Assembly (NCBI GenBank): GCA_963842085.1
Contig: CAWJET010000001.1
Span: 672,001-736,000, forward strand
Direction: 5' to 3'
DNA: 64,000 bases
Source of the DNA: an uncultured delta proteobacterium
Lineage (GTDB): Bacteria; Desulfobacterota; Binatia; Binatales; Binataceae
How positions within the stretch are numbered: position 1 is the first letter of the stretch; each line of letters opens with the position of its first letter. The position numbers and the translations under genes were made by a program. Under the pieces are notes generated by a model. The model did not search any database. It was not told the origin of the DNA and saw only the letters and a program-made list of their open reading frames with translations. Shown here piece after piece: positions 7,666 to 38,832 of the stretch.

Positions 7666-7948
7666 CTTTTTTTCTCTCGCCAGCCGCAATTTCGCCGCGC
7701 ACGTCGGCCGCCATCAAATCCTCGCGCTCGGCTTCGCGCAGCAATTCCTCGTAAAGGGCAAGGGTGGCTTCGACCTCCGCGGCGGGAATCTTGCGGATCG
7801 CGTAACCGACATGATTGAGCACGTAGTCGCCGGGACCGACCGGCTCGTCAACGATGTCGAGCAGGACCTCCTTGCGCACGCCCCAGAAATCGACGGTCGC
7901 GACGGAACCTGAAACTCCGACCACTCTGCCCGGTACACCGAGGCACAT
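7658..7948 (-). CDS. hypC: Hydrogenase chaperone HypC
   Basis: MCLGVPG start overlapping the hypF stop (TGATG); GDYVLNHVGYAI. Confidence 0.96.
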   Translation of the reverse strand: MCLGVPGRVVGVSGSVATVDFWGVRKEVLLDIVDEPVGPGDYVLNHVGYAIRKIPAAEVEATLALYEELLREAEREDLMAADVRGEIAAGERKKDG

Positions 7949-19798: not shown

Positions 19799-20779
19799 TT
19801 GACGACCACCGATCCGAGGATGCGCTTTTTCATTTTTGCGCTACGCACCGCAACCGAGGCCGCGGCTCAGGCGGCCTTCGAATGGATCGGACGCGGCGAC
19901 AAGGAGATGGGGGATAAAGCCGCGGTCACCGCGCTGCGCCGAGTGCTCAACCAGCTTCCGATCGACGGCACGATCGTGATCGGAGAAGGCGAGAAGGATG
20001 AGGCGCCTCAGCTCTACAACGGCGAGCGAGTCGGCAATCCCGACGCACCCGAGAAACTCGACATCGCCGTCGATCCGGTCGAGGGAACGAGCTACCTGGC
20101 GATGGGTCTTAGCAACGCCATGGTGGTGATCGCGATGGCGCCGCGCGGTACAATGTTCAGCCCCGGACCCGCATTTTACATGGAAAAGTTCGCAGCACCG
20201 CCTGCCGCCAAGGGGCAAATCGACATGGCCTGGCCGGTCGAGCGCAAGCTCAAAAAGCTCGCCGAGATCCTCGGCAAGCCCGTTTCGAAGCTGACCGTCT
20301 TCGTCCTGGAAAAGCCGCGGCACCGCCGGCTAGTCGAGGAGATCTATGCGGCCGGTGCCCGCGTGATGCAGTATCCGGCCGGTGATGTGGCTGGCGCATT
20401 GATGGCCGCGATTCCGGATTCAGCGGTGGACGCGCTGATGGGCACCGGCGGAACGCCCGAGGGAATCCTGACGGCCTGCGCGATCCGCGCGCTCGGAGCC
20501 GAGTTCATGGGACGGCTCGACCCGCAGCTTGCAACCGAAGCTGCGGTTGTGAAGCAGGCGGGGATGGACACCCAACGGTGGTATCGTGTGGAGGAACTGG
20601 TGCGTTCGCCCGAGACGCTGTTCTGCGCGACCGGGATCACGTCGGGACTGCTGCTTGATGGCATCGAGCGCGCCGAGACATATGATCGCTTACAGACCCT
20701 GATGATCTCCGGCATTACAGGAGAGCGCCAGATTCTGACGAGCTACCTGCCGACCGCGGCATCATTGAAGACCGCTTAG
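19799..20779 (+). CDS. glpX: Class II fructose-1,6-/sedoheptulose-1,7-bisphosphatase GlpX
   Basis: GEGEKDEAP, DPVEGT, YMEK, GGTPEG, ATGITSG. Confidence 0.95.
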   Translation: MTTTDPRMRFFIFALRTATEAAAQAAFEWIGRGDKEMGDKAAVTALRRVLNQLPIDGTIVIGEGEKDEAPQLYNGERVGNPDAPEKLDIAVDPVEGTSYLAMGLSNAMVVIAMAPRGTMFSPGPAFYMEKFAAPPAAKGQIDMAWPVERKLKKLAEILGKPVSKLTVFVLEKPRHRRLVEEIYAAGARVMQYPAGDVAGALMAAIPDSAVDALMGTGGTPEGILTACAIRALGAEFMGRLDPQLATEAAVVKQAGMDTQRWYRVEELVRSPETLFCATGITSGLLLDGIERAETYDRLQTLMISGITGERQILTSYLPTAASLKTA

Positions 20780-20794
20780 GAGGAGAAAATTGTA

Positions 20795-21730
20795 ATGCCT
20801 GAAAAGCGCGTCCCGCACCCCATCATGCTCGGTGTGGTCGGCGACTCAGCAGCGGGAAAGACCACTCTCTCCGAAGGTATTGCCTCGATTCTCCGCTCCG
20901 ACCGGGTCGTCGTAATGTGCGCTGACGACTACCACAGGTATTCGCGCGAGGAGCGCCGGATAAATGGCATCTCCGCGCTCGATCCCAAGGGAAACTACAT
21001 CGATATCCTGGAAGAGCACCTGCAGTTGCTGCGCCTGGGGCGTCCGATCCTGAAACCGGTCTACAACCATTCCGACGGGACGCTGGGTGCGCCGGAGTAC
21101 GTCGAACCGAAGCCCTACATCATCATCGAAGGGTTGCTCGGGTACACGACCCGCGCCATGCGCGACTGTTACGACGTCAAAATTTACCTCGAACCCGAAG
21201 AGGAGCTCCGCATCCTATGGAAGATTCAGCGTGACACAGCAAAGCGCGGCTACGAACGCGAGCAGGTGCTCGAGGAAATTGAAAAGCGCAAGCCTTTTAC
21301 CCAGGCGTATATCCATCCGCAGCGGCTGTTCGCCGACGTGGTAGTTTGTTTCCATCGGCCGGAGCACCCCACGGAGGGCTACCAGCATCTGAGCGTGCGG
21401 CATATCCTGCGTCCGACACTGCCTCATCCGGACCTCTCACCCGTGCTCAGCGATGTTGCCAATCCGGGACTTCGGATCGAGCTTGCCCGCGACAAGGACG
21501 GCAAGCCGGTTGATATCCTCGATATCGAGGGGAACATTACCGACCTTCGGGCGGAGCGCTTGGAAAAGCTGCTCTGGGAACTGATTCCAGAAGCGAGCCA
21601 CCTACGCGACAACGTAGGCTCGTTCGTTGACAAGAATGAACAGAAATCCAAAAGCCATCCGCTGGCGCTCACGCAGCTGCTGCTCACCTATTACATGGTC
21701 AAGGCGGCGCTCGGCGTCCACGTGATTTGA
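20795..21730 (+). CDS. prk: Phosphoribulokinase
   Basis: GDSAAGKTT P-loop, DDYH, KPVYNH, WKIQRDTAKRG, YIHPQR; cbb operon context. Confidence 0.92.
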   Translation: MPEKRVPHPIMLGVVGDSAAGKTTLSEGIASILRSDRVVVMCADDYHRYSREERRINGISALDPKGNYIDILEEHLQLLRLGRPILKPVYNHSDGTLGAPEYVEPKPYIIIEGLLGYTTRAMRDCYDVKIYLEPEEELRILWKIQRDTAKRGYEREQVLEEIEKRKPFTQAYIHPQRLFADVVVCFHRPEHPTEGYQHLSVRHILRPTLPHPDLSPVLSDVANPGLRIELARDKDGKPVDILDIEGNITDLRAERLEKLLWELIPEASHLRDNVGSFVDKNEQKSKSHPLALTQLLLTYYMVKAALGVHVI

Positions 21731-21805
21731 GCAGGGCTTCGGATTTCCACCGGATCCAGGTCAGCTTGAGGGCGGCAAACCGACACCGAGGCGGAGGATA
21801 AAGCG

Positions 21806-24377
<2,572 letters not shown>

Positions 24378-24392
24378 CGGAGGAGCCGGATC

Positions 24393-24812
24393 ATGAGAAT
24401 TACACAGGGAGCGTTCTCGTTCCTTCCCGATTTCACGGAAGACGAAGTCCGCGCGCAGCTCGAGTATTGCCTGCGCAACGGATGGGCAATAAACATCGAG
24501 TACACGGACGATCCGCATCCGCGCAACAGCTACTGGGAGTTGTGGGGACAGCCGATGTTCGATCAGAAGGATGCGGCCGCCGTGCTGGCTGAACTGGATG
24601 AGTGCCGCAAGGTACACCCGAACCATTACATAAAGATTAACGCCTTCGACTCGTCCAAGGGGCGCGAGTCGATTGCGCTCTCCTTCATTGTCAACCGGCC
24701 CCGCAAGGAGCCTGGCTTCGTTCTGGTCCGGCAGGAGGGGACAGGCCGCACAGTCCGCTATACTATTCGCAGCTACGCCACCGACCGGCCCGAAGGCGAA
24801 CGATACGATTGA
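24393..24812 (+). CDS. cbbS: RuBisCO small subunit, red-type
   Basis: [19 protein letters not shown], red-type C-terminal extension. Confidence 0.97.
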
Positions 24813-24821
24813 TGACGGCGT

Positions 24822-25799
24822 GTGCAAGAGCAGAAGCGACAATTGACCGCCACAACTGACGACAAGTCGGCAGCCGAGGATAAGCCTGCCACCCTGACGG
24901 CGCGGCCCAACTTGGAAGCGCCGGTAAACCTGGGCGAGGCGATGCGCGACGCCCGCGTGACCGAGGTGCTGGACCGTCTCGACCGGGAATTGGTCGGCTT
25001 GAAGCCCGTCAAGGCCCGGGTCCGGGAGATCGCCGCGCTTCTGCTCGTCGAGCGTGTGCGCGCAAGCGCCGGCCTGACCTCGACTCCGCCGAGCCTGCAC
25101 ATGTCGTTTACCGGCAATCCCGGCACCGGCAAGACGACGGTTGCGATGAGAATGGCCGAGATTCTGCATCGCCTCGGCTTCGTGCGCAAAGGACACGTCG
25201 TGGCGGTGACGCGCGATGATCTCGTCGGCCAGTACATCGGGCATACCGCGCCCAAGACCAAGGAAGTGCTCAAGCGCGCCATGGGCGGAGTGCTGTTCAT
25301 CGACGAGGCGTACTATCTCTACCGGGCCGAGAACGAGCGCGACTACGGCCAGGAAGCGATAGGAATCCTGATGCAGGTGATGGAGAATCAGCGCGAGGAT
25401 TTGGTGGTCATCCTGGCGGGTTACCGGGATCGCATGGATGCTTTCTTTCGCAGCAACCCCGGCCTCTCGTCACGCATCGCGCACCACATCGACTTTCCCG
25501 ATTACACGGCCGACGAACTAATGGAGATTGCGCAAATAATGCTGGCCGAGCAGAACTACCGGTTCAGCGAGGCGGGCGAGGCGGCATTTCGCCAGTATAT
25601 CACCAAGCGCATGACCCAGCCGCAATTTGCCAACGCGCGCAGCGTCCGCAACGCGCTCGACCGCGCTCGGCTGCGGCAGGCCACGAGGCTGCTTTCGCTT
25701 CCGGACAGCAAGCTGACGCTCAAGGATCTCATGACCATCGAAGCCGAGGAAATCCTGGCAAGCCGGGTCATGGCCGTGCCTGACACACCCATCACCTGA
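24822..25799 (+). CDS. cbbX: CbbX AAA+ RuBisCO activase
   Basis: [39 protein letters not shown]. Confidence 0.96.
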
Positions 25800-25946: not shown

Positions 25947-26846
25947 CTACGGTTCGGCGCGGAACACTCCCATCGCGCCGTTGTACTCATGCACCCGATT
26001 TAGATCCATGAATCGATACTCGCCCGGCTCGCTCACTTTGAACTCGAACACCGCGCCGGTGCTTGGGCCAACTGCGAAGTTGTCAGTCCCGTGAATCTGG
26101 TTGGCTGGATTTCCGCCGAAATAGACACTGCTGAATATGGCGCCGGCAACGTGAAACGTGGAGGTCAGGCTCGGACCGGCATTGACGAAGAATACTCGTA
26201 CCAACCTTCCCACTTTGATCAAAATCGGGTGCTCGGCGCCAGCTTTATTCAGCTGGCCATTGAACACTACAAAGGTTGGGCGTGCCTGCAGCATCGCGGT
26301 GAAGTCGGGAATAATCCGTCCGTTAGCGCGAGGTGTGCCGTAAAACTCACTCTGAACGAGGGTCATTTCCTGCGCCGGGCCCGATGGCCATCCATCTTTA
26401 GGATCCACGATAACAGCTCCATACATTCCGCGGCCGATGTGATCCAAAATAGGAATTCCGTTGCAGTGGTAGACAAAGACACCCGGCACGTCCGCACGAA
26501 ACTTATACCGCAGCGGAGCTTTGGTATTACCGCCGAAGTGCTCCGAAGAAATTTGAGCCGCAGGGATATTAAGGCCATGCGCGTCCCCCGTTTGGTTGAG
26601 TAATTCGACGTTGACCTCGTCGCCCTCGCGAAGCCTCAGTTCCGGTCCCGGAATGATACCGTCGAAGGTCCAGGCGTCGTAGGTCATTCCGTCTCCGATA
26701 TCGATACCTTTCTTTTCGACCGTCACGGTGAAGGTCTTGGTCGGTGCCTGAGCCCAAGCCGGCCCCCACACCATGGCAAAGACCATCGCGATCGCACCCA
26801 AGATCACGTTTCTTATGTCGCGGCCGGCGACCGAGTCTGCGTCCAT
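25947..26846 (-). CDS. Two-domain NirK-like cupredoxin/multicopper protein with degenerate type-2 Cu site
   Basis: WTFDGIIPGP, YHC...H...GMYG, VFNG, NAGP, FHVAG; signal peptide; two T2Cu histidines absent. Confidence 0.85.
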   Translation of the reverse strand: MDADSVAGRDIRNVILGAIAMVFAMVWGPAWAQAPTKTFTVTVEKKGIDIGDGMTYDAWTFDGIIPGPELRLREGDEVNVELLNQTGDAHGLNIPAAQISSEHFGGNTKAPLRYKFRADVPGVFVYHCNGIPILDHIGRGMYGAVIVDPKDGWPSGPAQEMTLVQSEFYGTPRANGRIIPDFTAMLQARPTFVVFNGQLNKAGAEHPILIKVGRLVRVFFVNAGPSLTSTFHVAGAIFSSVYFGGNPANQIHGTDNFAVGPSTGAVFEFKVSEPGEYRFMDLNRVHEYNGAMGVFRAEP

Positions 26847-26875
26847 ACCTTTGCTTCCCTTGCGAATCGCTGTGC

Positions 26876-27874
26876 TCACTTCGTCTTGCAGAAGTGCCTG
26901 ACGTATGCGCGCAGGCTGCGGATCTGGTCGTCGGTCAGCGCTTCTCCCCATGACGGCATGTCATTGCTGCGGCCGACCGAAGCACTGCCGCCCTTGATCT
27001 CATGGAACACGAAGTCGTCCGAGTCCCTCGCCATAATCTTGCAGTCGTGGAAGTTGCGCGGGTGGGTGGCAAGTGACAAGCCGTCAGGCCCGTCACCAAA
27101 ACCCTGCGGGCCATGACATCGCGAGCAGGTCTCTACAAACATCTCCTCGGTGGGGATGGTCTCTTCTGCGGCTGCACCTGGTGCGCTCTCGACCGCCCCG
27201 GCGGTGGGCTTGGGCAAGTTCTGGTTACTCCATTGCTGATAGTCCGCAGGCGTCAGAACTTTCAGGATACCTTTCATCGCGAAGTGCGAGATTCCGCAAA
27301 GCTGGGAGCACCCGATTTCATAGGTGCCCGGACGCGTTACCTCGAACCACGTGGGAATCTCCCGGCCGGGGAGGACGTCCTGTCTAAGGCGCAACTGCGG
27401 CACGTAAAAACTGTGGATCACGTCCTTCGACGTCATGAGCAAGCGGACTACCTGACCCGCGGGAACGATCAAAGTCGTAGTTTGGACCAGGTTGTGCGGG
27501 CCGAACTTGCCGTCGGGACCCGGATAAATGAACTCCCATCCGAACTGGAACGCCTCCAACTTTACCGTTAGCCCCGGAGCCGGACTTTGCTCCTTGACCA
27601 GATCCCAGACCGGCTTTGCCCGAACGTCGATCACGACGTCAAGGAAGGCGACAACGACGACCGGGACCAGCACCCATGCCAACTCGCGCAGTGACTTGCC
27701 GGGCACAAAGGCCGCTCGTCCACCCGCTCGACGACGGTACAAGATGAGGAACGCCAGAAGCGTACCCTCGGCCAGGATGAACGCCGTACCGACGATGTAG
27801 ATGACCAGCTTGATTACCGAGTCGATGCTCGGCCCGAACGTCGAAACGTCCGGTGGGAGCCACCCAAGGATCAT
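26876..27874 (-). CDS. coxB: Cytochrome c oxidase subunit II fused to a C-terminal cytochrome c (second copy)
   Basis: Two TM helices, DVIHSF, CSQLCGISHFAM CuA motif, CSRCH heme with distal DMP methionine. Confidence 0.92.
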   Translation of the reverse strand: MILGWLPPDVSTFGPSIDSVIKLVIYIVGTAFILAEGTLLAFLILYRRRAGGRAAFVPGKSLRELAWVLVPVVVVAFLDVVIDVRAKPVWDLVKEQSPAPGLTVKLEAFQFGWEFIYPGPDGKFGPHNLVQTTTLIVPAGQVVRLLMTSKDVIHSFYVPQLRLRQDVLPGREIPTWFEVTRPGTYEIGCSQLCGISHFAMKGILKVLTPADYQQWSNQNLPKPTAGAVESAPGAAAEETIPTEEMFVETCSRCHGPQGFGDGPDGLSLATHPRNFHDCKIMARDSDDFVFHEIKGGSASVGRSNDMPSWGEALTDDQIRSLRAYVRHFCKTK

Positions 27875-27978: not shown

Positions 27979-28683
27979 TTAGCCCTTCGGCTTCATTGAG
28001 AAATTGGCGGTCGCCGTCGCGCCGTCTTTCACGTCAACTTTCTGATTCTCCGTGCCAAGCTTCTCCTGCCACACTTCCACCGTATAGTCACCCGGCGGCA
28101 CATCCTTGATCTCGTAGTTGCCCTTGTCGTCGGTCACCGCGAAGTACGGGGTGTCGGTCGCGACCCACCACCCGCGCATCCAGCTATGCGCATCGCAGGT
28201 GACCTTGATCACTTCGGGCTGATCGATCTTATGCTTGATCTCTTTCTTGAACTTGGGCTGAGCCGTGTTGAACGACGGATTCGCGGTCGAATAGGTGTGG
28301 ATGTTGTGCAGAATCCCGTCTGAGTTGATGATGTCCACGGTGCTGCCGGCCGGGAACGCGAGCACGTGTGGCACGTAGTCGCATCCCTTCTGGTCGAACT
28401 TCACTTCGGCGGGCTTCAGCTCGCCCTTGGCGCCTTTCACGACCACCACTGCGTTCGCGATTCCGCCGCTGGGATCAACGATCAAATCCTCGGTGAAGTG
28501 CGGATGGAGACCGCAGACGTCCTTATCCTTGGTCACCTCGACCGGCTTGCGTGCGGGCGGCGTGCCGTCGTACTTGACGATTCCGCTGATCGTGCCGCCG
28601 GCGGCGCTCACGAGGCTGGCGCTAACGCTGAGGCTGAGCGCGATTCCCGCACACGCCGCCAGTACAAGTGGAAGCTTTTTCAT
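27979..28683 (-). CDS. Exported cupredoxin-like / carboxypeptidase-regulatory-like domain protein
   Basis: Signal peptide; DQKGC.Y.PHV, HNIH, CDAHSWM (His/Cys/His/Met T1Cu-like set). Confidence 0.8.
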   Translation of the reverse strand: MKKLPLVLAACAGIALSLSVSASLVSAAGGTISGIVKYDGTPPARKPVEVTKDKDVCGLHPHFTEDLIVDPSGGIANAVVVVKGAKGELKPAEVKFDQKGCDYVPHVLAFPAGSTVDIINSDGILHNIHTYSTANPSFNTAQPKFKKEIKHKIDQPEVIKVTCDAHSWMRGWWVATDTPYFAVTDDKGNYEIKDVPPGDYTVEVWQEKLGTENQKVDVKDGATATANFSMKPKG

Positions 28684-28724
28684 TAGCACTCCTCCTGCGA
28701 AATCATTCGTATTTCTCACGTCGC

Positions 28725-29423
28725 CTAGATCTTCGGATCGGTGTGCGCGAGCAGCTCGCGCATCTCGCGCATAATCCTGCCATAGTCGGGCTTGCCGAAG
28801 ATTCCCGAGCCTGAGACGAACACGTTGGCGCCGGCAGCCTTGACGTCCGCGATATTGTCGAGCTTCACGCCGCCGTCGATCTCGACGTCGAGACTGAGTC
28901 CGCGCCGCTTCAACTCGCGCCGGACGTAGCGCAACTTGTCCAGCGCGGCCGGGATAAACTCCTGGCCGCCGAATCCCGGGTGCACGCTCATCACAAGGAT
29001 CATGTCGAGATGCTCGGCAAAGGGCAGCACGCGGCCGGCGTCGGTCTCGGGATTGATTCCCACTGACGCGCGTGCGCCGAGGTCATGGATTCGCTTGGCC
29101 ATCGCGGGAATGTCGGGGCAGACCTCGCAATGCACCGAAATTGAATTGGCGCCCGCCTTCACAAAGGCTTCGACGTAGCGCGCCGGCTCGGAGATCATCA
29201 GGTGCGCGTCGAGCGGAAGTTTCGTAATCTTGCGGACCGCTCCCAGCACCGGAATTCCAATCGAGAGGTTGGGCACGAAGTGCCCGTCCATCACGTCGAA
29301 ATGAATCAAGTCAGCGCCCGCCTGCTCGACCGCGCGAATTTCCTCGCCCAGCCGCGCGAAGTCAGCGGACAGTATCGACGGCGCGAGTCTGTCAACAGGA
29401 TCCGCGTTGGAGGACTTGTTCAT
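28725..29423 (-). CDS. rpe: Ribulose-phosphate 3-epimerase
   Basis: APSILSADF, HFDVMDGHFVPN, DAHLMI, MSVHPGFGGQ, EIDGG. Confidence 0.97.
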   Translation of the reverse strand: MNKSSNADPVDRLAPSILSADFARLGEEIRAVEQAGADLIHFDVMDGHFVPNLSIGIPVLGAVRKITKLPLDAHLMISEPARYVEAFVKAGANSISVHCEVCPDIPAMAKRIHDLGARASVGINPETDAGRVLPFAEHLDMILVMSVHPGFGGQEFIPAALDKLRYVRRELKRRGLSLDVEIDGGVKLDNIADVKAAGANVFVSGSGIFGKPDYGRIMREMRELLAHTDPKI

Positions 29424-29493: not shown

Positions 29494-30489
29494 TCAGACC
29501 TTGTCGAGCACCATCGCCAGCAGCACCACCGGCAGGTACGCAAGCGAAACCTTCATGACTCGCTGCGCCGCGGCGGCACTGGTGGAACCTCCCAGCACGA
29601 GTTGCAGGCAACGAAATAGCAACACCGCTCCAAGTACAACGGCGACCGGCACGTAAAGGAGTCCGGCAAACCTCATCAGGGCCGGCATCAGACCAACCAG
29701 GAGCAACGCCAAGGCCGCCGCTACAGTCAGTAAATTGGCGGGGTCGCCATAGCGGCCCCGCTCCGGCAGCATGTGGATACCTGCGCGCGCATAGTCGCGT
29801 CGATAGAGGCGCGCGATCGAGAGCGAATGCGGCAACTGCCACAGGAACATGATGGCGAAAAGTATCAGCGGCTCGCCGCCCAGGCCGTTGCGCGCCGCCG
29901 CCCAGCCGATCACCGGCGGCAGAGCGCCGGGAACCGCGCCAATGACGTGGCAGAGCCAGGTGACTCGCTTCATCGGGGTGTATGCACCCAGATAAAGCGC
30001 CGCGATGGCGCCGGTAACCATTGCGCTCAGCGGATTGACTTTCAACCAAAGATATAAAATCCCGGCGAGCGCGGTAACCACGCCGAACATCAGCGCGTCG
30101 ATCGGCCGCAACCGGCCTGAAGGCAGCGGCCGATGGCGCGTCCGCTCCATCCGGGCGTCCGTGTCGCGCTCGGCGTATTCGTTCAGCGCCAGCGTTCCGC
30201 CGGCCGCCAATGCGGTGCCGATCACCAGGTTAAGCGCCAGCACGAACCCGAACTGCTCGCCGCTTCCCATGTAGAAGCCCGCGAGCGTGGTGATAAGCAC
30301 CATCGTGAGCACGCGCGGCTTGGCCAATTCGAAATAGGCGGCTGCGTACTCGCTCACCGACGGCGCGGCACACAGTGCCACCTCTTCCACCGTCGCGGCT
30401 TTCAGGTTCAGGCGCTGAGAGGGCGTTATAGTTCCCGCCCCCTCAGTGAGCGATGCCAATCGTTCCGACGCTGGAAGGTTCTGGAACAC
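29494..30489 (-). CDS. cyoE: Protoheme IX farnesyltransferase (heme o synthase)
   Basis: LAKPR, ERDTDARMERTRHRPLPSG, YTPMKR, GALPPVIGW, DYARAG; start uncertain. Confidence 0.94.
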   Translation of the reverse strand: MFQNLPASERLASLTEGAGTITPSQRLNLKAATVEEVALCAAPSVSEYAAAYFELAKPRVLTMVLITTLAGFYMGSGEQFGFVLALNLVIGTALAAGGTLALNEYAERDTDARMERTRHRPLPSGRLRPIDALMFGVVTALAGILYLWLKVNPLSAMVTGAIAALYLGAYTPMKRVTWLCHVIGAVPGALPPVIGWAAARNGLGGEPLILFAIMFLWQLPHSLSIARLYRRDYARAGIHMLPERGRYGDPANLLTVAAALALLLVGLMPALMRFAGLLYVPVAVVLGAVLLFRCLQLVLGGSTSAAAAQRVMKVSLAYLPVVLLAMVLDKV

Positions 30490-30493
30490 GCCG

Positions 30494-30811
30494 TTAACGC
30501 GCCGTCTTCAGATACTCCAATATTGCATCCTCATCGTGCGGCGGCAGGTTCTCCATCGTGCGCATATGCATGATGATTTGATCCCACTGGTACGGAGCGA
30601 ACTCGGCGGGATTTCGAGCGTTGTGACAGTGGTTGCAATAGATTGGCCACAACGCCTGGCCCTCGTGGAACAGCTCAAGATGCCGCTTTTGCTGTTCCGG
30701 AGTGGGCCCCGTCGGGCCTGCAGCCTGCGCGCCCACCGCAGCAGCCAGCAGCACGAGCGACATCATTCCGGCCTTGGCAATCAGTGATTTCATCGTCGTC
30801 GGCCTCTTCAA
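30494..30811 (-). CDS. Small exported monoheme cytochrome c
   Basis: Signal peptide; CNHCH; W...HMR distal ligand region. Confidence 0.85.
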   Translation of the reverse strand: MKRPTTMKSLIAKAGMMSLVLLAAAVGAQAAGPTGPTPEQQKRHLELFHEGQALWPIYCNHCHNARNPAEFAPYQWDQIIMHMRTMENLPPHDEDAILEYLKTAR

Positions 30812-30814
30812 GGT

Positions 30815-32407
30815 TCAGAAACCAATTGATAGCTGCGTCATCACCGCGACATCGTTCGCCGTTGCGTTGATGCCGGTCGCGGTCGGGGTGGAGGCCGATC
30901 CTACGAAGTTGTAGAGCGTCCCGCCCCTTTCCGGAAGCTCCCAGTCAACCTCGGACTGCCAGACAATCGATGGCGCTATCCAGTAGTCGAGCGCCAGGGC
31001 GACCTCGCGCGCGTGCGGGCTATAGACGGAGGGCGATCCGTTGAAAGTGAAAATCGGTACGGGGCTGATGTCGTTCGCCAGAATGGCACGTTGATTCACG
31101 CCCGAGTAGCGCACCAGGAATTCAGTCTTGTCGAACCTCTGCTCCAGAAAGTCTCCAAGGTAGGGATGCGGAATGCCATAGAGGAAGTAACCGAACATCG
31201 CATACCAGCCCTCCCGGTTCTCATGCCCGCAGCAACCGGGATACATAGCCGCTCCCGTAAGCGAGGGCATTTGACGGTAGGTCTGCGCCCACTCGCCTCG
31301 GGTGCGGAACGGTCCGACGCGATAGGCGTAGCCCACGTCCCAGGCGTTGTACCAGAGCCCGTCGAGCCACTTGCCATTGTAGGTTGACGCCATCAGTTCA
31401 AGCCGTCCCCAATCCGCGCTGATGGGTATCGGGAACAGCCTGAAGCGCGCACCGAAACCCTTGCCATTCGTCGCAATGTTAGTACCGGTGAGCGGATTGA
31501 GTGCCTCACCGATTACCGGGTTGGGAATCGCATCCACGCCGGGCGACGATTCGAAACTCGGCCCGGAATCAATCCATACAGTGTAGTCAACGTCCTGCCC
31601 CATCTTTCCCCACTGGATACCGCCGCGCGCCTGCAGTCCCATAGCCGAGGGGGGAGCGATCGATTCAGCACCGAACATCAGCGGCGCCGTTATGAAAGGA
31701 TTGATCCAGCTGGGGCTCTGGTCCTCGAACCAGTCTCCTAAGGGCGTGTCGAACACCCCGACGAGCAGTTCCAGAGGAAACTCCTGTCCAGCCGGAAAGA
31801 TCTGAAGATTGGCGAGGCTTGGACCCACGTCGGAAATTCCACCCGGTTGGAGGGTAGCGCCGATGCTGCCGTAGAACTGGATCCAGTCATTAAGCCTGAG
31901 CATCGGGTTAACTTCGAAGTCAAGCACCGGTTGATTCATCGCGGCTTCGCGGTCGAAGTAGAAGCCGGCAGAGACGCCACCAACCATCGTGAAGGTATGT
32001 TGGCCGAGAAAGGCGTTTATGCGGTCGCCAAAACCGAGCGGCCCGAGCTGGGAATAGATGGTCTTCTGAATCTGGCCGACCTGCTTCTCAGTTTGAGCGT
32101 TAGTAGTCTGGAAACTAGTCTGCAGAGCGGTCTGGTTTTGCTGGAGATGCTGATTCGACTCCTGGAGTTCCCTGACTGCATCCTCGAGTTTCTCGATATG
32201 TTTGCGTTCGGCGTCAATTTCCTCGAGCAGACGCCGGTACTCAGTCGCTTTTTTCGATCTCGCGCTCGGCGGATCATCCGCCGTGCTTGGCTTCGAGATA
32301 GACGATTCATCCGCGCGCACGCTTCGTGGCGGCAACAGCATCAGCATCACCGCGATCGAAGCCAGTGTCCCCACGATCACCAGATGACTCACGCGCCTCA
32401 TACTCAT
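30815..32407 (-). CDS. Putative outer-membrane porin with N-terminal coiled coil
   Basis: Signal peptide, coiled coil, then aromatic/Gly-rich amphipathic strands, terminal Phe (LSIGF); no CxxCH. Confidence 0.75.
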   Translation of the reverse strand: MSMRRVSHLVIVGTLASIAVMLMLLPPRSVRADESSISKPSTADDPPSARSKKATEYRRLLEEIDAERKHIEKLEDAVRELQESNQHLQQNQTALQTSFQTTNAQTEKQVGQIQKTIYSQLGPLGFGDRINAFLGQHTFTMVGGVSAGFYFDREAAMNQPVLDFEVNPMLRLNDWIQFYGSIGATLQPGGISDVGPSLANLQIFPAGQEFPLELLVGVFDTPLGDWFEDQSPSWINPFITAPLMFGAESIAPPSAMGLQARGGIQWGKMGQDVDYTVWIDSGPSFESSPGVDAIPNPVIGEALNPLTGTNIATNGKGFGARFRLFPIPISADWGRLELMASTYNGKWLDGLWYNAWDVGYAYRVGPFRTRGEWAQTYRQMPSLTGAAMYPGCCGHENREGWYAMFGYFLYGIPHPYLGDFLEQRFDKTEFLVRYSGVNQRAILANDISPVPIFTFNGSPSVYSPHAREVALALDYWIAPSIVWQSEVDWELPERGGTLYNFVGSASTPTATGINATANDVAVMTQLSIGF

Positions 32408-32623: not shown

Positions 32624-33013
32624 TCATTGCGCTACATCGATTTCGCCCTTCATTCCTTCCTTCACGTGCGTCGTGCAGAAGTACTTGTAAGTCCCGGGAA
32701 CCTTGAACGTGTAGCTGAAGTCTTCGCCCCCGTTCAGGTAACCGGAGTCCCACGTCTCCGCCCCCGCCGGCACCGATGCCCAGCTTGCGTCCGGCGCCTG
32801 GGACGGATCGCTGGTCGCGGTGTGGATGGTTTCGCCCTTGTTCACCCACTTTATAGTATCGCCGACTTTGACCTTCACCGGGTCGGGAACGAATTTCGCC
32901 GGCGTGTCGAACATCTTTACCTCCACGGTTTCCGCGAATGCCGGCATCGCGAGACCCAGCGACAACACACATGCGACCAGCAATCCCCTGCCAAGTAGCT
33001 GCATCTTTTTCAT
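32624..33013 (-). CDS. Plastocyanin/azurin-family blue copper protein
   Basis: Signal peptide; HTAT and YFCTTHVKEGMKG T1Cu ligands. Confidence 0.92.
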   Translation of the reverse strand: MKKMQLLGRGLLVACVLSLGLAMPAFAETVEVKMFDTPAKFVPDPVKVKVGDTIKWVNKGETIHTATSDPSQAPDASWASVPAGAETWDSGYLNGGEDFSYTFKVPGTYKYFCTTHVKEGMKGEIDVAQ

Positions 33014-33348
33014 ATTTTCCTCCAGCGCATCCAGGTTCCATTTGTGTTACCGCTGTTTGTGACAACTAAAGGCTCACCAGGACTCTCGATCGAGCCCGCT
33101 GTTTCCAAATACAGGCTCGTATCCGTTAGTTCTGATTTCTCGGAATAGGCGTGGAACGCGTATAGCGTTATTGCCCCGATAATTCCCCAAGCGAGGGCTA
33201 TCATGAAAAAAGCGCTCACCAGATAAGCGTGCAGGACGCCCGGTCCCGATGACCCAAAGCATAGCGGGCATGCATAGGCCGCAGGAGTGCAGACGAGCAC
33301 CGCCGAGATCGCAAGGGCGGCTGACTTAACTGAAGTAGACCAGCGCAT
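33010..33348 (-). CDS. Small membrane protein with CxxC after the signal peptide
   Basis: AYA-CPLC-FG followed by one TM helix; overlaps both neighbours in the operon. Confidence 0.6.
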   Translation of the reverse strand: MRWSTSVKSAALAISAVLVCTPAAYACPLCFGSSGPGVLHAYLVSAFFMIALAWGIIGAITLYAFHAYSEKSELTDTSLYLETAGSIESPGEPLVVTNSGNTNGTWMRWRKI

Positions 33349-33977: not shown

Positions 33978-34268
33978 CTACGGATGCATCGCGACGTCCG
34001 GAATGAACACCAAGGCCATCACAATCACCAGCGCCACCGGAAGCAGCGCCAGGGTATAAATCAGTACGTCTTCCGAGCGCAGGCGCATATAGTATCGTCC
34101 AATGACGTAGACCTGCGCTGCCGCCGCGGCAAATATGACCCACAGCGCCAGGCTTCGTGGCAGGCCCCGTGCCACGGTCAGGGCGCCCACCAGCAAAAGA
34201 ACAACCAGCAGTATCCAGGTTCTCAAAGAGTCCGAAGCATTGAATTCGGCTTGTTCCATCGGCGACAC
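33978..34268 (-). CDS. Cytochrome c oxidase subunit IV family protein
   Basis: Three TM helices, YYMRLRSE motif; lies between the two subunit III genes. Confidence 0.75.
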   Translation of the reverse strand: MSPMEQAEFNASDSLRTWILLVVLLLVGALTVARGLPRSLALWVIFAAAAAQVYVIGRYYMRLRSEDVLIYTLALLPVALVIVMALVFIPDVAMHP

Positions 34269-34883
34269 CTATCCGGCGGTGGGCGCCAAATACACCAGGG
34301 CAAAAAGCAGCACCCACACCGTCTCGACGAAATACCAATACAGGCACACGTATTTGAGCTTGCGCTCCAACCAACCGGCCGGAGTGCTGGGGCTCACCAT
34401 CAACATCAGTCCGAAGATCACCACGACTCCGGCCAGCAGATGAAGTACATGCAGCCCGGTCATCACATAGTAGAAGCTCCAGAAGAGCGCAGCGAGCGGA
34501 GTAAACCCTTCGCGAAAATCGCCGGCGTATTCGAAGGCCTTGATCACCAGGAAGAGCGTGCCCAGCAGCACAGTGGCGCTCAGGTAACGCTTCACTCGCG
34601 CCGAATCCTGGACGCGCGCGGCGCCTTGCGCGAGCGCGGCGGTCAGGCTGCTCGCAAACAGAACGAAGGTGTTGATCGCCCCCAGCCGCCAGTTGACGTG
34701 CGCGCCGGCGGCTCCCCATCCGCCATGGGAGACCCCCATCAGAATAAAGACACCCATGAGCCCGCCGAAGAGCATTGTTTCGCCGGCGAAGAACACCCAC
34801 ATTCCGAGCTTGCCGATCTCAAAACTGGTCGGTACCTCGTGCGCCGCATGTGCGATCCCGATTTCGGCTGCTGAGTTTGCCAT
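34269..34883 (-). CDS. coxC: Cytochrome c oxidase subunit III family protein
   Basis: KLGMWVFFAGETMLFGG, NTFVLFASS, TGLHVLH, LYWYFVE. Confidence 0.9.
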   Translation of the reverse strand: MANSAAEIGIAHAAHEVPTSFEIGKLGMWVFFAGETMLFGGLMGVFILMGVSHGGWGAAGAHVNWRLGAINTFVLFASSLTAALAQGAARVQDSARVKRYLSATVLLGTLFLVIKAFEYAGDFREGFTPLAALFWSFYYVMTGLHVLHLLAGVVVIFGLMLMVSPSTPAGWLERKLKYVCLYWYFVETVWVLLFALVYLAPTAG

Positions 34884-34893
34884 AAGTTTGCGC

Positions 34894-36600
34894 TCACCCC
34901 TGCGCGGCGCCTGCCTCCACCGCTGCGGCTTGCGGAACCCAATCCTGTTTCATCCCGGGCACACTGTACTCGTATGGCCCGCACACGACTGTCGGTATGG
35001 TGTGGAAGTTCTCATGCGGCGGCGGCGAATCGGTGGCCCATTCAAGCGTGGTGGCATTCCAAGGATTCGCAGGAGCCTTCGCGCCACGGAACATGCTCAT
35101 GAAAAAGTTCAGCAGGAACGGGACCTGCCCAGCTATTATGATGAGCAGCCCGATCGTTGCGATCACGTGGAGCGGCTGAAGCGGCTTGTAGTAGTGGTAA
35201 ACGGACGACAAATAGATTCGGCGCTGTCCGCCGCCCAACCCGATCAAGAACAGCGGAATAAATACCGTGTTGAAACCGATCCAGGTGAAAGCGAAGTGGA
35301 TCCTTCCCAGGGTCTCATTCATCATCCGGCCGAACATCTTCGGGAACCAGAAGTAGATCCCGCCAAATCCCGCGATAACGGCGGTCGGCACGAGCGTGTT
35401 GTGGAAATGCGCGATTACAAAATAGGTGTCGTGCAGGTAGATATCCGACGCATCCGTCCCCAGCGGAATGCCGGTTACCCCGCCCAGCAGGAAATTAGCC
35501 AGGGCGCCCAGCGCAAACAGCATCGCCGTGGTGTACGTGATCTGGCCGCGCCATAGCGTCGCGATCATCGCAAACAGCATCACCGCGAACGGAATGGAAA
35601 TCGCGATCGTGGTCGCGCTGAAAGGCTCTGCCAGCGTCGGGTTCATCCCGCTCACGAACATGTGGTGAGCCCACACCGTGAAGCTCAGGATTCCGGCTGC
35701 AATCACCGACCACACAATCATGCGATAGCCAAAAATCGGCTTGCGGCTGAATACCGGGAGGATCTCCATCACGATGCCGAGCCCCGGTACCGCCACGACA
35801 TACACCTCGGGATGGCCGAAGAACCAGAACAGGTGCTGCCATAGCAGCGGGTCGGCTCCTTTTTCCGGCAGGAAGAAGCCCGTGCCCACCATCCGATCGA
35901 GCAACAACATCACCACGCCGGCGATGAGCGGGCCCACACTCAGCATGAACATCACGCTCGCTACCAGTTCTGCCCACACCAGCAGCGGCATTCGCCAGAT
36001 CGTCATCCCGGGAGCGCGCATCGCGATCGCGGTGGTGAGGAAGTTGATGCCGCCCATCAGGACCGAAGCGAAATCGATCGCCACGGCGAGCAGCCAAAGG
36101 TTTCCGCCCCAGTAATTTCCGGGCAGGAACTTTGCCCCGTCCGACAGCGGAACGTAGTTCGTCCAGCCCGCGCGCGACGCGCCGCCCGGGACGAAAAACG
36201 AAAGCAGCAAGAGGACCGAAGCGACGAAAATAGTCCAGTACGAGGCCATGTTGAGCCGCGGGAACGCCATGTCGCGCGCCCCGACCATCAGCGGGATCAG
36301 GAAATTGCCGAACGCGCCAAGCAGCACCGGCATCGCCACGAAGAAGACCATTGTGGTTCCGTGCATCGTGACGACTTCGTAATACTGCAGTGCACTTACT
36401 TTTCCCCAGAGCGGAACCGAGGTGCGGGGCCAGGCAAGCTGCCAGCGGAAGACGTACGACAAGAACACGCCCACAAACCCCATGAACAAGCCCAGAAACA
36501 GGTACTGCTTGCCGATCACCTTGTGATCGACAGAAAATACGTACTGCCACCAAAAGCTCATCTTCTCGTGAGCCTCGACGGACTGCGCCATCTCGCTCAT
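34894..36600 (-). CDS. coxA: Heme-copper oxidase subunit I, A-family (GHPEVY) with altered K-channel
   Basis: DHKVIG, MHG, DMAFPRLN, GHPEVY, WAHHMF, HDTYFVIAHFH, RR; all six His ligands present. Confidence 0.96.
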   Translation of the reverse strand: MSEMAQSVEAHEKMSFWWQYVFSVDHKVIGKQYLFLGLFMGFVGVFLSYVFRWQLAWPRTSVPLWGKVSALQYYEVVTMHGTTMVFFVAMPVLLGAFGNFLIPLMVGARDMAFPRLNMASYWTIFVASVLLLLSFFVPGGASRAGWTNYVPLSDGAKFLPGNYWGGNLWLLAVAIDFASVLMGGINFLTTAIAMRAPGMTIWRMPLLVWAELVASVMFMLSVGPLIAGVVMLLLDRMVGTGFFLPEKGADPLLWQHLFWFFGHPEVYVVAVPGLGIVMEILPVFSRKPIFGYRMIVWSVIAAGILSFTVWAHHMFVSGMNPTLAEPFSATTIAISIPFAVMLFAMIATLWRGQITYTTAMLFALGALANFLLGGVTGIPLGTDASDIYLHDTYFVIAHFHNTLVPTAVIAGFGGIYFWFPKMFGRMMNETLGRIHFAFTWIGFNTVFIPLFLIGLGGGQRRIYLSSVYHYYKPLQPLHVIATIGLLIIIAGQVPFLLNFFMSMFRGAKAPANPWNATTLEWATDSPPPHENFHTIPTVVCGPYEYSVPGMKQDWVPQAAAVEAGAAQG

Positions 36601-36603
36601 CGC

Positions 36604-37341
36604 CTATCCCTCCTTCCCGTTTGCCGGCGATCGCGCACCTGATGCGCTCTTGCCCGTGCCGGCGGCGGCGGACTTGGACCAATGCTGGTTAACCCATTGC
36701 TGATAGTCCTCGGGCGTCAGAACTTTCAGGATACCTTTCATCGCGAAGTGCGAGATCCCGCAAAGCTGGGAGCATCCGATTTCATATGTGCCGGGCTGCG
36801 TCGCCTCGAACCATGCGGGAATCTCCCGGCCCGGAAGGACGTCCTGTCTAAGACGCAACTGCGGTACGTAAAAACTGTGGATCACGTCCTTCGACGTCAT
36901 CAGCAAGCGGACCACCTGGCCCGTGGGAACGGTCAAAGTCGTTGTTTGGACCAGGTCGTCGTGCGTGCCGAACTGGCCGTCAGGACCCGGATACGTGAAC
37001 TCCCATCCGAACTGGAACGCATCCAACTTTACCGTCAGCCCCGGAGCCGGACTTTGCTCCTTAACCAGTTCCCAGACCGGCTTTGCCCGAACGTCGATCG
37101 CCACATCAAGGAAGATGACGACAATGACGGGGATCAGCACCCATGCGAGCTGGCGCAGCGAATCGCCACGCACAAAGAATGCGTGCTGGCCCTCGCGGCG
37201 ACGGTAGAAGATGACGAACGCCAAGAGCGTACCCTCGGCCAGGATGAGCGCCGTACCGACTATGGAGATGACGAGCCTGATCACCGAGTCAATGTTTGGC
37301 CCGAACGTCGAAATGTCTTGTGGAAGCCAGCCGAAGATCAT
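36604..37341 (-). CDS. coxB: Cytochrome c oxidase subunit II
   Basis: Two TM helices; DVIHSF and CSQLCGISHFAM CuA motif. Confidence 0.94.
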   Translation of the reverse strand: MIFGWLPQDISTFGPNIDSVIRLVISIVGTALILAEGTLLAFVIFYRRREGQHAFFVRGDSLRQLAWVLIPVIVVIFLDVAIDVRAKPVWELVKEQSPAPGLTVKLDAFQFGWEFTYPGPDGQFGTHDDLVQTTTLTVPTGQVVRLLMTSKDVIHSFYVPQLRLRQDVLPGREIPAWFEATQPGTYEIGCSQLCGISHFAMKGILKVLTPEDYQQWVNQHWSKSAAAGTGKSASGARSPANGKEG

Positions 37342-37346
37342 GATGT

Positions 37347-38129
37347 TTACTCAGCCTGCGGCAAGCCTTGTCGTTTCGCAGGGGCGACTCCAAGGCCTGA
37401 GCACTCTCCCAGCTTCTCGCCGCGAACGGTGTTGCTGGAGGGGATTCCGGTGGCCGGCGGATTGTCGTCGTGACAGTCCAGGTTGCCGCCGATGTAATTT
37501 TGCGAGATGAGCCCCGACGCGACGGGATAGCCCGGCACGGTTATCGATCCCGCATTATTGTGGAACTCCAGCTTCCCGCCCATCTGGACTGCCCGGTTGC
37601 AAGCACTTGGATCCCCAATTACCCAAGGTGAATCGGACGAGCTCCCTTGGATTTGAACATCTCCGCCGATCCAGACATAGCAGAGGAAATTCGTCTTAAG
37701 ATCGCCGGTAGGGGGCGAAGTCGGCGGGAAACTCGTGGTATGAGACGCGGTCACGTTCCCGCCAACCGTGCTGTCCCCATACAGCCCGAGATATTTGGCG
37801 TGATCGGCCGTCAGGTTTCCCCGGATGTGCACGGTGCCGGCGATGAGGCCGCCCTCGACGGTGACGTTCCCCGTTACCGTGGTTCCTGCGAGCGTGCAGG
37901 CTGCTCCCGCGGGAACGTCTACGTTGCCATCGACTGTGACCGCACCCATTGTGACCTTACCAAACGAGCCGGTGCATGAGGTCACGGGTGCGGCGTTGGC
38001 GGCCGTAGCCGACAAGCCAACGACCACTGCTAGGCCAACCGTGCTGACCAGGTAACCCATCAGCTTGAGCATCGAGTCGATGCTCGGACCGAGCGTTGAA
38101 ACGTCTTGTGAATGCCTGGCTAGGATCAT
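37347..38129 (-). CDS. Exported Gly/Thr/Val-rich hypothetical protein (beta-helix-like) with coxB-derived N-terminus
   Basis: GGAGG RBS; DVSTLGPSIDS leader; repeated (V/I)xGN(V/L) units; several Cys; 5-bp gap to coxB. Confidence 0.65.
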   Translation of the reverse strand: MILARHSQDVSTLGPSIDSMLKLMGYLVSTVGLAVVVGLSATAANAAPVTSCTGSFGKVTMGAVTVDGNVDVPAGAACTLAGTTVTGNVTVEGGLIAGTVHIRGNLTADHAKYLGLYGDSTVGGNVTASHTTSFPPTSPPTGDLKTNFLCYVWIGGDVQIQGSSSDSPWVIGDPSACNRAVQMGGKLEFHNNAGSITVPGYPVASGLISQNYIGGNLDCHDDNPPATGIPSSNTVRGEKLGECSGLGVAPAKRQGLPQAE

Positions 38130-38832
38130 CGTCCTCCCCCGAACTGGATCCTGTGCGCGATCTGAACCGTGCGCTTTTGCCAAGAAGCAAACGCAGTGAT
38201 TGTTCAGATCGCCGGTGTCGCCTTCGTCGCTGAAGGCGCACCATACTTTTCGTTGCCTGCTCCTCCCCAAACCGAGCCACAAGGCAGACTGTCTACATTC
38301 GTGGCCAGTCTGCCAGGCAGGTCCTCGGTATATTGATCGATACTCGGCCCGCAGGTCGAAACGTCAGGCAACAGCCACCCGACCTTACAGATCCTCCCAT
38401 GCGGTAAATTTTGTTCGAACGGTTCTTTGCGGGACTGACGGGCAACTTCGAACATGCTCAACTCGTTCGCTGGTTTATGCAACTTCGTGTTTACGCATCT
38501 CGATAAAGCGCTTATACGCGCTTCCAAATAAAAAAGTCAAGCTGGATCAGACTAGAGCCAACACACTTTTTGCAGGCAGCTCCATTTCCCTCGGCATCGA
38601 GGAATCAGCACGGTAGATAAATTCTAGAATCACCCAAGACAAGAATGGCTGCTTGCTCTATCGCTGATGCCGCGAGCCCCGCGCGACAAGCCCGCTTCTC
38701 CAGCCCCCCGACGCCCCAGAAAATCCGCGGCTATGCCGGCTATCTCTAGTTTTGTTCCGCAGAGGCCGCGATAAATGATAAATGGACGACTGTGTGGCAA
38801 GGCTAAGCCGTTCGGCATCTGGCCCGAGACGC

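Follow-up and report, generated by a model that had tools for sequence, protein, structure and literature searches.

In a 64,000-nucleotide stretch of a Binatia genome (the window; positions 672,001 to 736,000 of contig CAWJET010000001.1, assembly GCA_963842085.1, from an uncultured soil member of the Binataceae), the gene coxI codes for subunit I of an A1-type heme-copper oxidase (HCO) in which the Lys, Thr and Ser residues of the K-pathway are missing. The K-pathway is usually taken as the one proton route common to all O2-reducing heme-copper oxidases, natural Lys-free enzymes of the A family are exceptions to the K-pathway lysine rule, and we know of no natural Lys-free A-family enzyme of the A1 type that has been characterised. 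The reading favoured here, to which slightly less than an even chance is given, takes the coxI product to be the catalytic subunit of a functional A1-class O2 reductase of the CuA type, in which the lysine K-pathway would be replaced by clade-specific buried carboxylates. In its detailed form, held somewhat more tentatively, the lysine would be replaced by a buried Glu, provided in trans by subunit II or, in a sister clade, in cis by helix VIII, and a second carboxylate would be placed atop the D-pathway.

The clade is otherwise canonical, it includes the sole oxidase found in some genomes, and it has a sister clade with another placement of the carboxylate. These three traits make the question of what replaces the lysine open to direct testing.

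Loss of the K-pathway residues in subunit I

The gene and the codons concerned are located as follows.

34894..36600, minus strand: coxI, A1-type heme-copper oxidase subunit I of 568 amino acids, without the K-pathway Lys, Thr and Ser
35578..35580, minus strand: codon of Met341, the K362 equivalent, from direct codon reading and alignment
35587..35589, minus strand: codon of Phe338, the T359 equivalent, from direct codon reading
35767..35769, minus strand: codon of Met278, the S299 equivalent, from direct codon reading

The coxI product was matched to Pfam PF00115 (COX1) with an E value of 3.1e-137. For TIGR02891, the NCBIfam equivalog CtaD_CoxA, a score of 599 bits was obtained, and because this lies below the cut-off of 670.75 bits the protein would rank as a divergent CtaD_CoxA member by this yardstick. 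The nearest relatives of solved structure are mycobacterial CtaD chains (7rh6_R, E value 2.1e-126 in HMMER), followed by Rhodobacter sphaeroides 1m56_A (6e-114). An AlphaFold2 (AF2) model of the protein reached a predicted local distance difference test score (pLDDT) of 86.2 and a predicted template modelling score (pTM) of 0.90.

In a first-pass annotation, made from the sequence letters without database searches, it had been claimed that K362, T359 and S299 (R. sphaeroides numbering) are changed to Met, Phe and Met. This was borne out by the codons, with the Met codon rightly placed at 35578-35580, and by the HMMER alignment to the CtaD chains, which sets ISIPFAVMLF on IAVPTGIKFF and GIVMEI on GIVSEI. 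The alignments are gapless through helices VI to VIII, by which misalignment is ruled out as the source of the Lys loss. The R. sphaeroides numbers were derived from alignment offsets to 1m56_A (query residues 75-536 on chain residues 97-555), and the assignment of residues to the K- and D-pathways is textbook knowledge. No compensating Lys was found near position 341 in subunit I; the candidate for a compensating residue is not a Lys, being a buried Glu in subunit II. The only conserved clade-specific ionisable residues in the helices of subunit I are D/E176 and H478, and R293 and R351 sit at cytoplasmic helix ends.

For the comparison of residues, 118 full-length proteins of the clade to which coxI belongs (clade 1) were set against 55 Lys-bearing representatives with the GHPEVY motif, referred to as canonical below. 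At position 341, clade 1 has Met in 48, Leu in 37 and Ile in 33 proteins, as compared to Lys in all 55 canonical ones. Position 338 is Phe throughout the clade (118/118), as compared to Thr (51), Ser (3) or Val (1). At position 278, Leu (73), Met (22), Gln (20), Phe (2) and Cys (1) were found in the clade, the canonical residue being Ser in 54 of 55.

Conservation, selection and distribution

The closest set consisted of the query and 120 matches at 62-100% identity. All 121 proteins keep GHPEVY and carry Met, Leu or Ile in place of the Lys and Phe in place of the Thr, and none has Ser at the S299 position, so that the whole clade shares the loss of Lys and Thr. The ratio of nonsynonymous to synonymous substitution rates (dN/dS, Nei-Gojobori) was 0.13 in comparison with the nearest orthologue, from genome G163 (89% identity, dS 0.45), and 0.25-0.28 with four orthologues at 61-66% identity. 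Random decay is thus not the cause of the losses, which occur together, hold across the clade and are accompanied by purifying selection; the clade-wide losses, the low dN/dS and the intact ligands speak against a pseudogene.

The named homologues of coxI come from Candidatus Binataceae, Binatus and Binatia. In a survey of 201 genomes of the same class, in which the best 30 loci were examined and the counts are lower bounds, the motif was verified in at least 18 genomes for clade 1 and in at least 11 for its sister, clade 2. Within the genus, an orthologue was found in one of nine other genomes (G163), a count that takes in the unpublished G225; seven of the others have best matches of 48-50% identity, like the Lys-bearing paralogue, and one has no match at the threshold. 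Seven DNA runs from soil or sediment, belonging to two studies, are listed as carrying the operon, and no RNA runs are listed.

The host genome (4.93 Mb, two contigs, 100% complete) contains five subunit I genes, and no cytochrome bd was found in it. The four paralogues of coxI are the following.

Lys-bearing A-type paralogue: fusion of subunits I and III, with IPTGVKIF
Lys-bearing A-type paralogue: 561 amino acids, with VPTGIKIF
Lys-bearing A-type paralogue: 584 amino acids, with VPSAIKTF
B-type paralogue: with GHPIVY, on a gene separate from coxI

In a PF00115 scan of 15 other carrier genomes, the Lys-free gene was the sole match in two (G182 and G254), and at least two matches were found in the other 13. 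In G182, which is 99% complete, neither a further heme-copper oxidase nor a cytochrome bd was found beside the Lys-free coxI; in G254 (94% complete, 400 contigs), the Lys-free gene is the only PF00115 match. The Lys-free oxidase is thus usually an extra oxidase, but can be the sole one of a genome. For G301 and G274, 11 and 17 matches to PF00115 were obtained; many are short pieces that adjoin each other in differing frames, and they have the look of oxidase genes broken up by frameshifts or fragmentation, or of errors in the assembly.

This distribution bears on the explanation that coxI encodes a crippled or non-catalytic paralogue heading for loss, which is tolerated beside four other oxidases. 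It would agree with the three Lys-bearing A-type oxidases and the one B-type oxidase of the host and with the patchy occurrence within the genus. Such a fate is extremely unlikely in view of the dN/dS of 0.13, the intact ligands, the conservation in 121 of 121 homologues down to 62% identity, the conserved five-gene core operon and the role as sole HCO in two of 15 carrier genomes.

Active site and D-pathway entry

The metal-binding and D-pathway residues were read directly from the sequence, with the central motif located as follows.

35800..35814, minus strand: H263-P-E265-V-Y267, comprising the CuB His, the D-pathway Glu and the cross-link Tyr, intact, from codon reading

All six His that bind heme a, heme a3 and CuB are present (H80, H263, H312, H313, H398 and H400) and are invariant across the alignment. 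E265 (the E286 equivalent) and Y267 of GHPEVY are present, as are R460 and R461, and the D-pathway entry, consisting of D110, N99 and N117 (D132, N121 and N139 equivalents), was found in 118 of 118 clade members. The claim of the first-pass annotation that the D-channel residues, the cross-linked Tyr and the metal ligands are intact was thereby confirmed. Of the traits that define A1-type HCOs, the His ligands, GHPEVY, the D-pathway entry and the CuA subunit II are found in the coxI and coxII products, and the K-pathway residues are not. B-family oxidases have neither a D-pathway nor the helix VI Glu; the coxI product has both. The hallmark of NO reductases, a lost cross-link Tyr with an altered ligand set, was likewise not found, Tyr267 and the three CuB His being present.

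These residues also bear on the explanation that the enzyme serves a different chemistry, mainly the reduction of NO or H2O2, for which the K-pathway would not be needed. According to the accessible parts of the cited papers, to which all statements from the literature in this text are limited, the oxidase reaction is lost in engineered K362M, the D-pathway cannot substitute, and peroxidase activity is kept (PMC7601700, citing Vygodina 1998). This phenotype had been named as established in the first-pass annotation and was found as described; the retained peroxidase activity would suit a peroxide-reducing enzyme, as a NirK-like copper protein encoded about 8 kb downstream on the same strand would suit NO reduction. 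Both are outweighed by the Tyr-His motif and the three CuB His, which were complete in 121 of 121 proteins, in comparison with NO reductase families (cNOR, qNOR, eNOR, sNOR, gNOR and nNOR) that are described without the cross-link Tyr (PMC11214002). The NirK-like gene did not turn up by BLAST in 19 related loci, though it was not among the queries, and by eye the protein appears to be without one type-2 copper His. In G182, moreover, the Lys-free oxidase is the sole terminal oxidase found. A different chemistry is therefore improbable. The earlier proposal that the losses reflect different chemistry or proton routing rather than decay stands in part: the coordinated clade-wide losses and the purifying selection speak against random decay, the parts for proton handling are remodelled, and the part on NO or peroxide chemistry is unsupported, given the complete Tyr-His motif and CuB His and the sole oxidase in G182, where no cytochrome bd was found.

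A buried glutamate in subunit II

Immediately upstream of coxI, the gene for subunit II was identified, which is accompanied by a second, more distant copy.

36604..37341, minus strand: coxII, CuA subunit II of 245 amino acids, PF00116, without a cytochrome c domain
37234-37236, minus strand: codon of Glu36 of coxII, in transmembrane helix 1
37150-37152, minus strand: codon of Gln64 of coxII, aligned with the R. sphaeroides subunit II Glu for which the mutant chain 6ci0_B has Ala
37009-37011, minus strand: codon of Phe111 of coxII, aligned with the first Trp of QWYW; Phe in 116 of 120 homologues
26876-27874, minus strand: second subunit II gene, 80% identical to coxII (195 of 243 aligned residues), with a C-terminal cytochrome c domain (CSRCH)

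The CuA site of coxII comprises H155 and the motif CSQLCGISHFAM. Among 120 subunit II sequences, two of which have gaps there, position 36 is Glu in 103 of the 118 aligned. The subunit II partners of Lys-bearing subunits I, from this genome and its relatives, have Met, Thr or Gln at this position (five sequences, by eye), and in helix 1 of R. sphaeroides subunit II no acid is present in the stretch aligned to coxII.

In a model of the complex of subunits I and II, residue 36 of coxII contacts subunit I residues 368 and 371 in helix IX, and the helix 1 residues 35, 38, 39 and 42 contact subunit I residues 346 and 349 in helix VIII. The model scored 0.91, as compared to 0.00 for the best control, and thereby passed a mark that had been attained for 58 of 80 complexes of solved structure and for 2 of 110 mismatched pairs; subunits I and II are a textbook pair, and the pass may stem from likeness to solved oxidases. 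Three runs agreed in at least 97% of the contacts, with a partner pLDDT of at least 84. In the models, the cytoplasmic boundary lies about 10 residues below Glu36 and about 8 below Met341.

The facing helices of subunit I differ from the canonical ones at several positions. In helix IX, position 366 is Gly or Ala in 111 of 118 clade members as compared to Phe in 49 of 55 canonical proteins, position 368 is Ala in 108 as compared to mostly Phe, Val, Leu or Ile (47 of 55), and position 369 is Thr, Asn or Ser in 115 as compared to mostly Leu or Met (43 of 55). In addition, W345 is replaced by Met in 109 clade members, and Ser335 stands in place of Ala in all 118. Judged by the model, helix IX would thus be remodelled exactly where the helix carrying Glu36 is predicted to pack.

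This suggests a mechanism in which the K-pathway protons of the reductive half-cycle would be delivered through the clade-specific buried carboxylates instead. The likeliest of these is Glu36 of subunit II, which would be packed on the remodelled face of helices VIII and IX at the depth of the missing Lys, forming a K-type route in trans.

Several observations weigh against this reading. Glu36 is missing from 15 of the 118 homologues, and the clade-1 loci of G297 and G160 have Gln36 and no Glu in helix VIII. Positions 338 and 341 are hydrophobic, so that a continuous polar path would be conjectural, and the placement of Glu36 is a prediction from model contacts. The Glu aligned to Gln64 of coxII is taken here to be E101(II), the entrance of the K-pathway in R. 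sphaeroides; among the homologues, 118 of them aligned and two more gapped at this position, Glu was found in 64 and Gln in 54, and the change from E101(II) to Gln in coxII would accordingly not be clade-wide.

The relation between positions 36 and 64 had led to the idea that the Glu has moved from the latter to the former. This was hinted at by 21 sequences and refuted on 120, in which Glu at both positions occurs more often than any other pair (56 of 120). Phe111 corresponds to the first Trp of QWYW, presumably the Trp of electron entry. As a separate observation, 59 of the 120 sequences of subunit II, coxII included, have Gln for the Glu of the CuA motif (coxII residue 192), and the D412 equivalent in subunit I (coxI residue 391, 35428-35430) is Gly in 71 of 118 sequences; both residues are taken to be ligands of the Mg/Mn site.

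Positions 36 and 64 are both Glu in the second subunit II, which, judging from its sequence, could be an alternative, caa3-style partner of the same oxidase. Upstream of coxII, two open reading frames (37347-38282 and 38204-38527, both on the minus strand) contain stretches like the N-terminus of coxII, with a ...DVST.GPSID... motif, and may be remnants of a tandem coxII duplication. The 311-residue open reading frame upstream of coxII gave no family match.

The sister clade

Clade 2, the sister clade within the Binatia, is 57-58% identical to coxI. It is also without Lys, Thr and Ser at the K-pathway positions and shares the helix IV Glu, described below, and the five-gene operon with clade 1. 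The two clades differ in the candidate Glu, which in clade 2 is found on helix VIII instead of at subunit II position 36: position 340 of subunit I, one residue before the Lys position, is Glu in 11 of 11 loci. In 6 of 6 loci, the subunit II of clade 2 has Gln at position 36 and retains both the entry Glu and the Trp of the QW motif. In the proposed mechanism, the Glu on helix VIII itself, adjoining the Lys position, would serve in the same role as Glu36. If this is true, the two sister clades would be a natural swap experiment on proton delivery in the reductive half-cycle of A-family oxidases, and the A family would include a K-route built on carboxylates.

An additional acid in helix IV

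A further residue specific to the clade was identified on the D-pathway side of subunit I.

36073..36075, minus strand: codon of Asp176, a clade-specific buried acid in helix IV on the D-pathway face, from the clade comparison

At position 176, which we take to be equivalent to S197, a residue of the D-pathway, 85 of the 118 clade members have Glu and 32 have Asp (117/118 acidic), as compared to no acid in the 55 canonical proteins. In the AF2 model it lies within a helix spanning residues 163-193, in blocks with a pLDDT of 93-95, and by helical periodicity it shares a face with the S200 and N207 equivalents. Its distance from the P-side start of helix IV is 13 residues, as compared to 14 residues from the start of helix VI for E265, and the acid is therefore predicted to lie close to the D-pathway's upper end, about as deep as E286. 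T123 (114 of 118) and Q32 (117 of 118) belong to the same region and are found in 0 and 2 of the 55 canonical proteins. Asp or Glu at position 176 would probably alter the working of the D-pathway.

The same residues are the core of the main rival explanation, a D-pathway-only oxidase. Here the K route would be closed, all protons would be taken up through the D-pathway, which is upgraded by the helix IV acid and the additional polar residues, and the enzyme would possibly be non-pumping. This is consistent with the clade-specific D/E176, T123 and Q32, with the conservation of D110, N99, N117, S120 and E265 in 117-118 of 118 clade members, and with the non-protonatable residues at positions 338, 341 and 278. 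Other K-less cytochrome c oxidases (COX) are read alike, as having lost the K-channel and kept the D-channel, in the accessible part of the preprint by Degli Esposti. As evidence on the other side, the D-pathway cannot substitute for the oxidase reaction in engineered K362M (PMC7601700). This reading would not account for the conserved, buried Glu36 in subunit II or for the remodelled helix IX, and the helix IV acid is also found in clade 2, which has a Glu beside the Lys position. Taken together, a D-pathway-only enzyme is considered rather unlikely.

Recurrent loss of the lysine in the A family

A FastTree phylogeny was calculated for 142 rows, namely the paralogues of the host, sequences sampled from both clades and the nearest representatives of clusters at 50% identity, a set that is biased towards relatives of the Lys-free query. 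Of these rows, 64 are without the Lys; the label requires eight changes on the tree, at least seven of which are forced by well-supported branches. Loss of the K-pathway Lys in A-family oxidases is thus recurrent. Other Lys-free groups include archaeal enzymes (named Euryarchaeota, Desulfurococcales, Hydrothermarchaeota and Marsarchaeota), myxobacterial and Anaerolineae sequences, and a large clade of fusions of subunits I and III of about 840 amino acids (representatives P0141-P0265), with Gln or His at the Lys position. These fusions also have a helix IV Glu one position after the Binatia acid, and most have Glu for the Asn equivalent to N207.

In an IQ-TREE phylogeny of 47 rows under the posterior mean site frequency model (PMSF), a Binatia Lys-free clade of 15 rows, formed by clades 1 and 2 and one further representative, was recovered with 100% support in the approximate likelihood-ratio test (SH-aLRT), in agreement with FastTree. 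It falls into a 100%-supported group with Lys-bearing clades, the inner branching order of which is unresolved. The Lys loss is derived if the root lies outside the group that holds the Lys-bearing relatives. Representatives of K-less A2-type oxidases fall in clades other than that of the Binatia, both in FastTree and in IQ-TREE.

On the FastTree rows, the helix IV acid was found in 37 of 64 Lys-free sequences as compared to 0 of 78 Lys-bearing ones. This raw count is inflated by relatedness and rests on two or three lineages; also weighing against the favoured reading, Lys loss and helix IV acid coincide in only one or two of seven independent contrasts, with none opposed and p >= 0.5. A general rule that loss of the Lys goes with a helix IV acid is therefore unsupported.

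The novelty implied in the first-pass annotation has to be restricted, as A-family oxidases without a K-channel have already been described. For acidophilic Fe(II) oxidisers, a hydrophobic residue in place of the Lys in COX1, the loss of the entry Glu in COX2 and a kept D-channel were reported; non-acidophiles like Thioclava share the K-channel loss, and in soil bacteria rus-like clusters with duplicated COX3 were found (bioRxiv 10.1101/2020.03.01.968255). Seven independent K-channel losses were placed on the archaeal COX1 tree (Degli Esposti et al., PMC8239418), and a COX without K-channel was described for Ferrigenium straubiae in a 2026 preprint (bioRxiv 10.64898/2026.01.22.701106). A functional Fe-oxidising and O2-reducing supercomplex containing the Acidithiobacillus oxidase is also on record (PMC4059628, citing Castelle 2008). 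In the accessible part of the Binatota genome paper, complex IV is treated in general terms only. The string 'binat' occurs zero times in the accessible text of PMC8239418, and such forms may be listed in its Supplementary Figure 7 or in Figures S9-S11 of the preprint.

Lys-free A-family oxidases are thus already known, and this Binatia clade is new: no paper on the clade or its two carboxylates was found, though supplementary classifications of K- and D-channels may list such forms. As judged from the sequences, the features that appear to be new are the clade-specific Asp or Glu in helix IV and the buried Glu36 of subunit II.

Comparison with known oxidases

With the canonical A1-type aa3 and caa3 oxidases (R. 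sphaeroides 1M56/2GSM, Paracoccus denitrificans 1AR1 and mycobacterial CtaD 7RH6), the Binatia oxidase has the fold, the six His, GHPEVY, the Asp and Asn residues of the D-pathway, the Arg pair and the CuA subunit II in common. In contrast to them, it has Met, Phe and Met at K362, T359 and S299, an additional Asp in helix IV, and two subunit III-like genes, and its subunit II has the buried Glu36, Phe at the Trp position and Gln at the position of the entry Glu.

The ba3 oxidase of Thermus thermophilus, a member of the B family, has a Lys-free K-pathway analogue which starts at Glu15 of subunit II. It provides a precedent for a working Lys-free K-type route via a transmembrane Glu of subunit II. 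However, the ba3 oxidase is without the D-pathway and the helix VI Glu, and the coxI product has both.

The COX of the Acidithiobacillus rus operon is, by its published description, similar in the hydrophobic residue for the Lys, the substituted entry Glu of subunit II and the kept D-channel. Its type further resembles the Binatia locus in the gene order COX2-1-3-4, the duplicated COX3 of the soil variants and the cupredoxin and cytochrome c genes nearby. In contrast, the rus-type COX is reported to be of the A2 type, without the helix VI Glu, while the coxI product has the A1-type Glu in GHPEVY, a comparison made by description only. The rus operon also encodes Cyc2, a fused porin-cytochrome, together with rusticyanin, whereas the Binatia locus has a porin without CXXCH, a separate cytochrome c and a plastocyanin-like cupredoxin. 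The COX of Ferrigenium straubiae, an iron oxidiser of the Gallionellaceae with a coxBA11C operon, is likewise an A-family enzyme in which the K-channel is missing in subunits I and II and for which the consequence was left open in the accessible part of the source; it is likened to the Binatia oxidase by description only.

Operon and neighbouring genes

Downstream of coxI, the following genes were identified on the minus strand.

34269..34883, minus strand: coxIIIa, subunit III-like, 204 amino acids, PF00510, present in 19 of 19 loci
33978..34268, minus strand: coxIV, prokaryotic subunit IV, 96 amino acids, PF03626
33326..33961, minus strand: coxIIIb, second subunit III-like gene, 211 amino acids, PF00510, in 16 of 19 loci
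33010..33348, minus strand: small membrane protein with a CPLC motif, 112 amino acids, no family match, found by BLAST in 3 of 19 loci
32624..33013, minus strand: plastocyanin-like type-1 copper protein, 129 amino acids, PF00127, adjoining the oxidase in G163 alone (1 of 19)
30815..32407, minus strand: porin-like outer-membrane protein without CXXCH, 530 amino acids, for which the nearest Atlas clusters carry Porin_O_P on 14-45% of their members
30494..30811, minus strand: mono-heme cytochrome c (CNHCH), 105 amino acids, translationally adjacent to the porin gene, with weak NCBIfam cytochrome c matches
29494..30489, minus strand: ctaB, heme O synthase, TIGR01473 with 244 bits, above the cut-off

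The operon was compared by BLAST over 19 related loci, 13 of clade 1 and 6 of clade 2. The core coxII-coxI-coxIIIa is conserved in 19 of 19, and a coxIV match was obtained for 12 of the 13 loci of clade 1 and for none of the six of clade 2. The gene encoding heme A synthase is located elsewhere in the genome, beside a Lys-bearing oxidase paralogue.

The cupredoxin, porin and cytochrome c genes stand beside the oxidase in this genome and G163 only (1 of the 19 other loci), and the plastocyanin-like gene would on this pattern be a genus-specific accessory. This restricted occurrence bears on the putative high-potential donor considered in the first-pass annotation. The cupredoxin scored 9e-15 as a plastocyanin and only 5.6e-4 as a rusticyanin. 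The likeness of the porin to Porin_O_P clusters is a lead only; the protein has no heme motif, and the idea of a Cyc2 homologue is unsupported. A paralogous pair of porin and small cytochrome c genes, 46% and 49% identical, is present on contig 2 (G000:C2:28000-47000, 6932-13870, plus strand), where the porin matches PF07396 and the pair heads an operon for a GltD-like flavin/Fe-S protein, a Rieske protein, a cytochrome b and a cytochrome c. Because this paralogous pair heads another respiratory operon, porin and cytochrome c are a general accessory of respiratory operons in this genome and not a donor specific to the coxI oxidase.

Further downstream, the oxidase string continues with rpe, a cupredoxin-like protein, the subunit II-cytochrome c paralogue and the NirK-like protein, and a Calvin-cycle cluster converges on it.

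28725-29423, minus strand: rpe, ribulose-phosphate 3-epimerase, inside the oxidase string
27979-28719, minus strand: secreted protein with a C-terminal CarboxypepD_reg domain and an apparent type-1 copper motif (H...C..H..M) in its N-terminal half
25947-26951, minus strand: NirK-like two-domain copper protein, TIGR02376 with 150 bits, below the cut-off of 296
19799-25799, plus strand: Calvin-cycle cluster glpX-prk-fba-rbcL-cbbX, with class II aldolase and the RuBisCO large subunit

By their gene content, the oxidase string and the Calvin-cycle cluster hint at lithoautotrophy with copper-rich periplasmic carriers; the cluster suggests an autotrophic member of the Binatia. The arrangement with the oxidase is absent from the nearest orthologous locus, that of G163, and is not conserved with the oxidase in the genomes examined. 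A conserved link of the oxidase to the Calvin-cycle genes, or to the cupredoxin, porin and cytochrome c genes, of which only G163 has the latter among the 19 loci, was therefore ruled out. The NirK-like protein keeps, by eye, the type-1 copper motif (HC...H....M), and a Pro stands at what we take, also by eye, to be the position of the first type-2 copper His.

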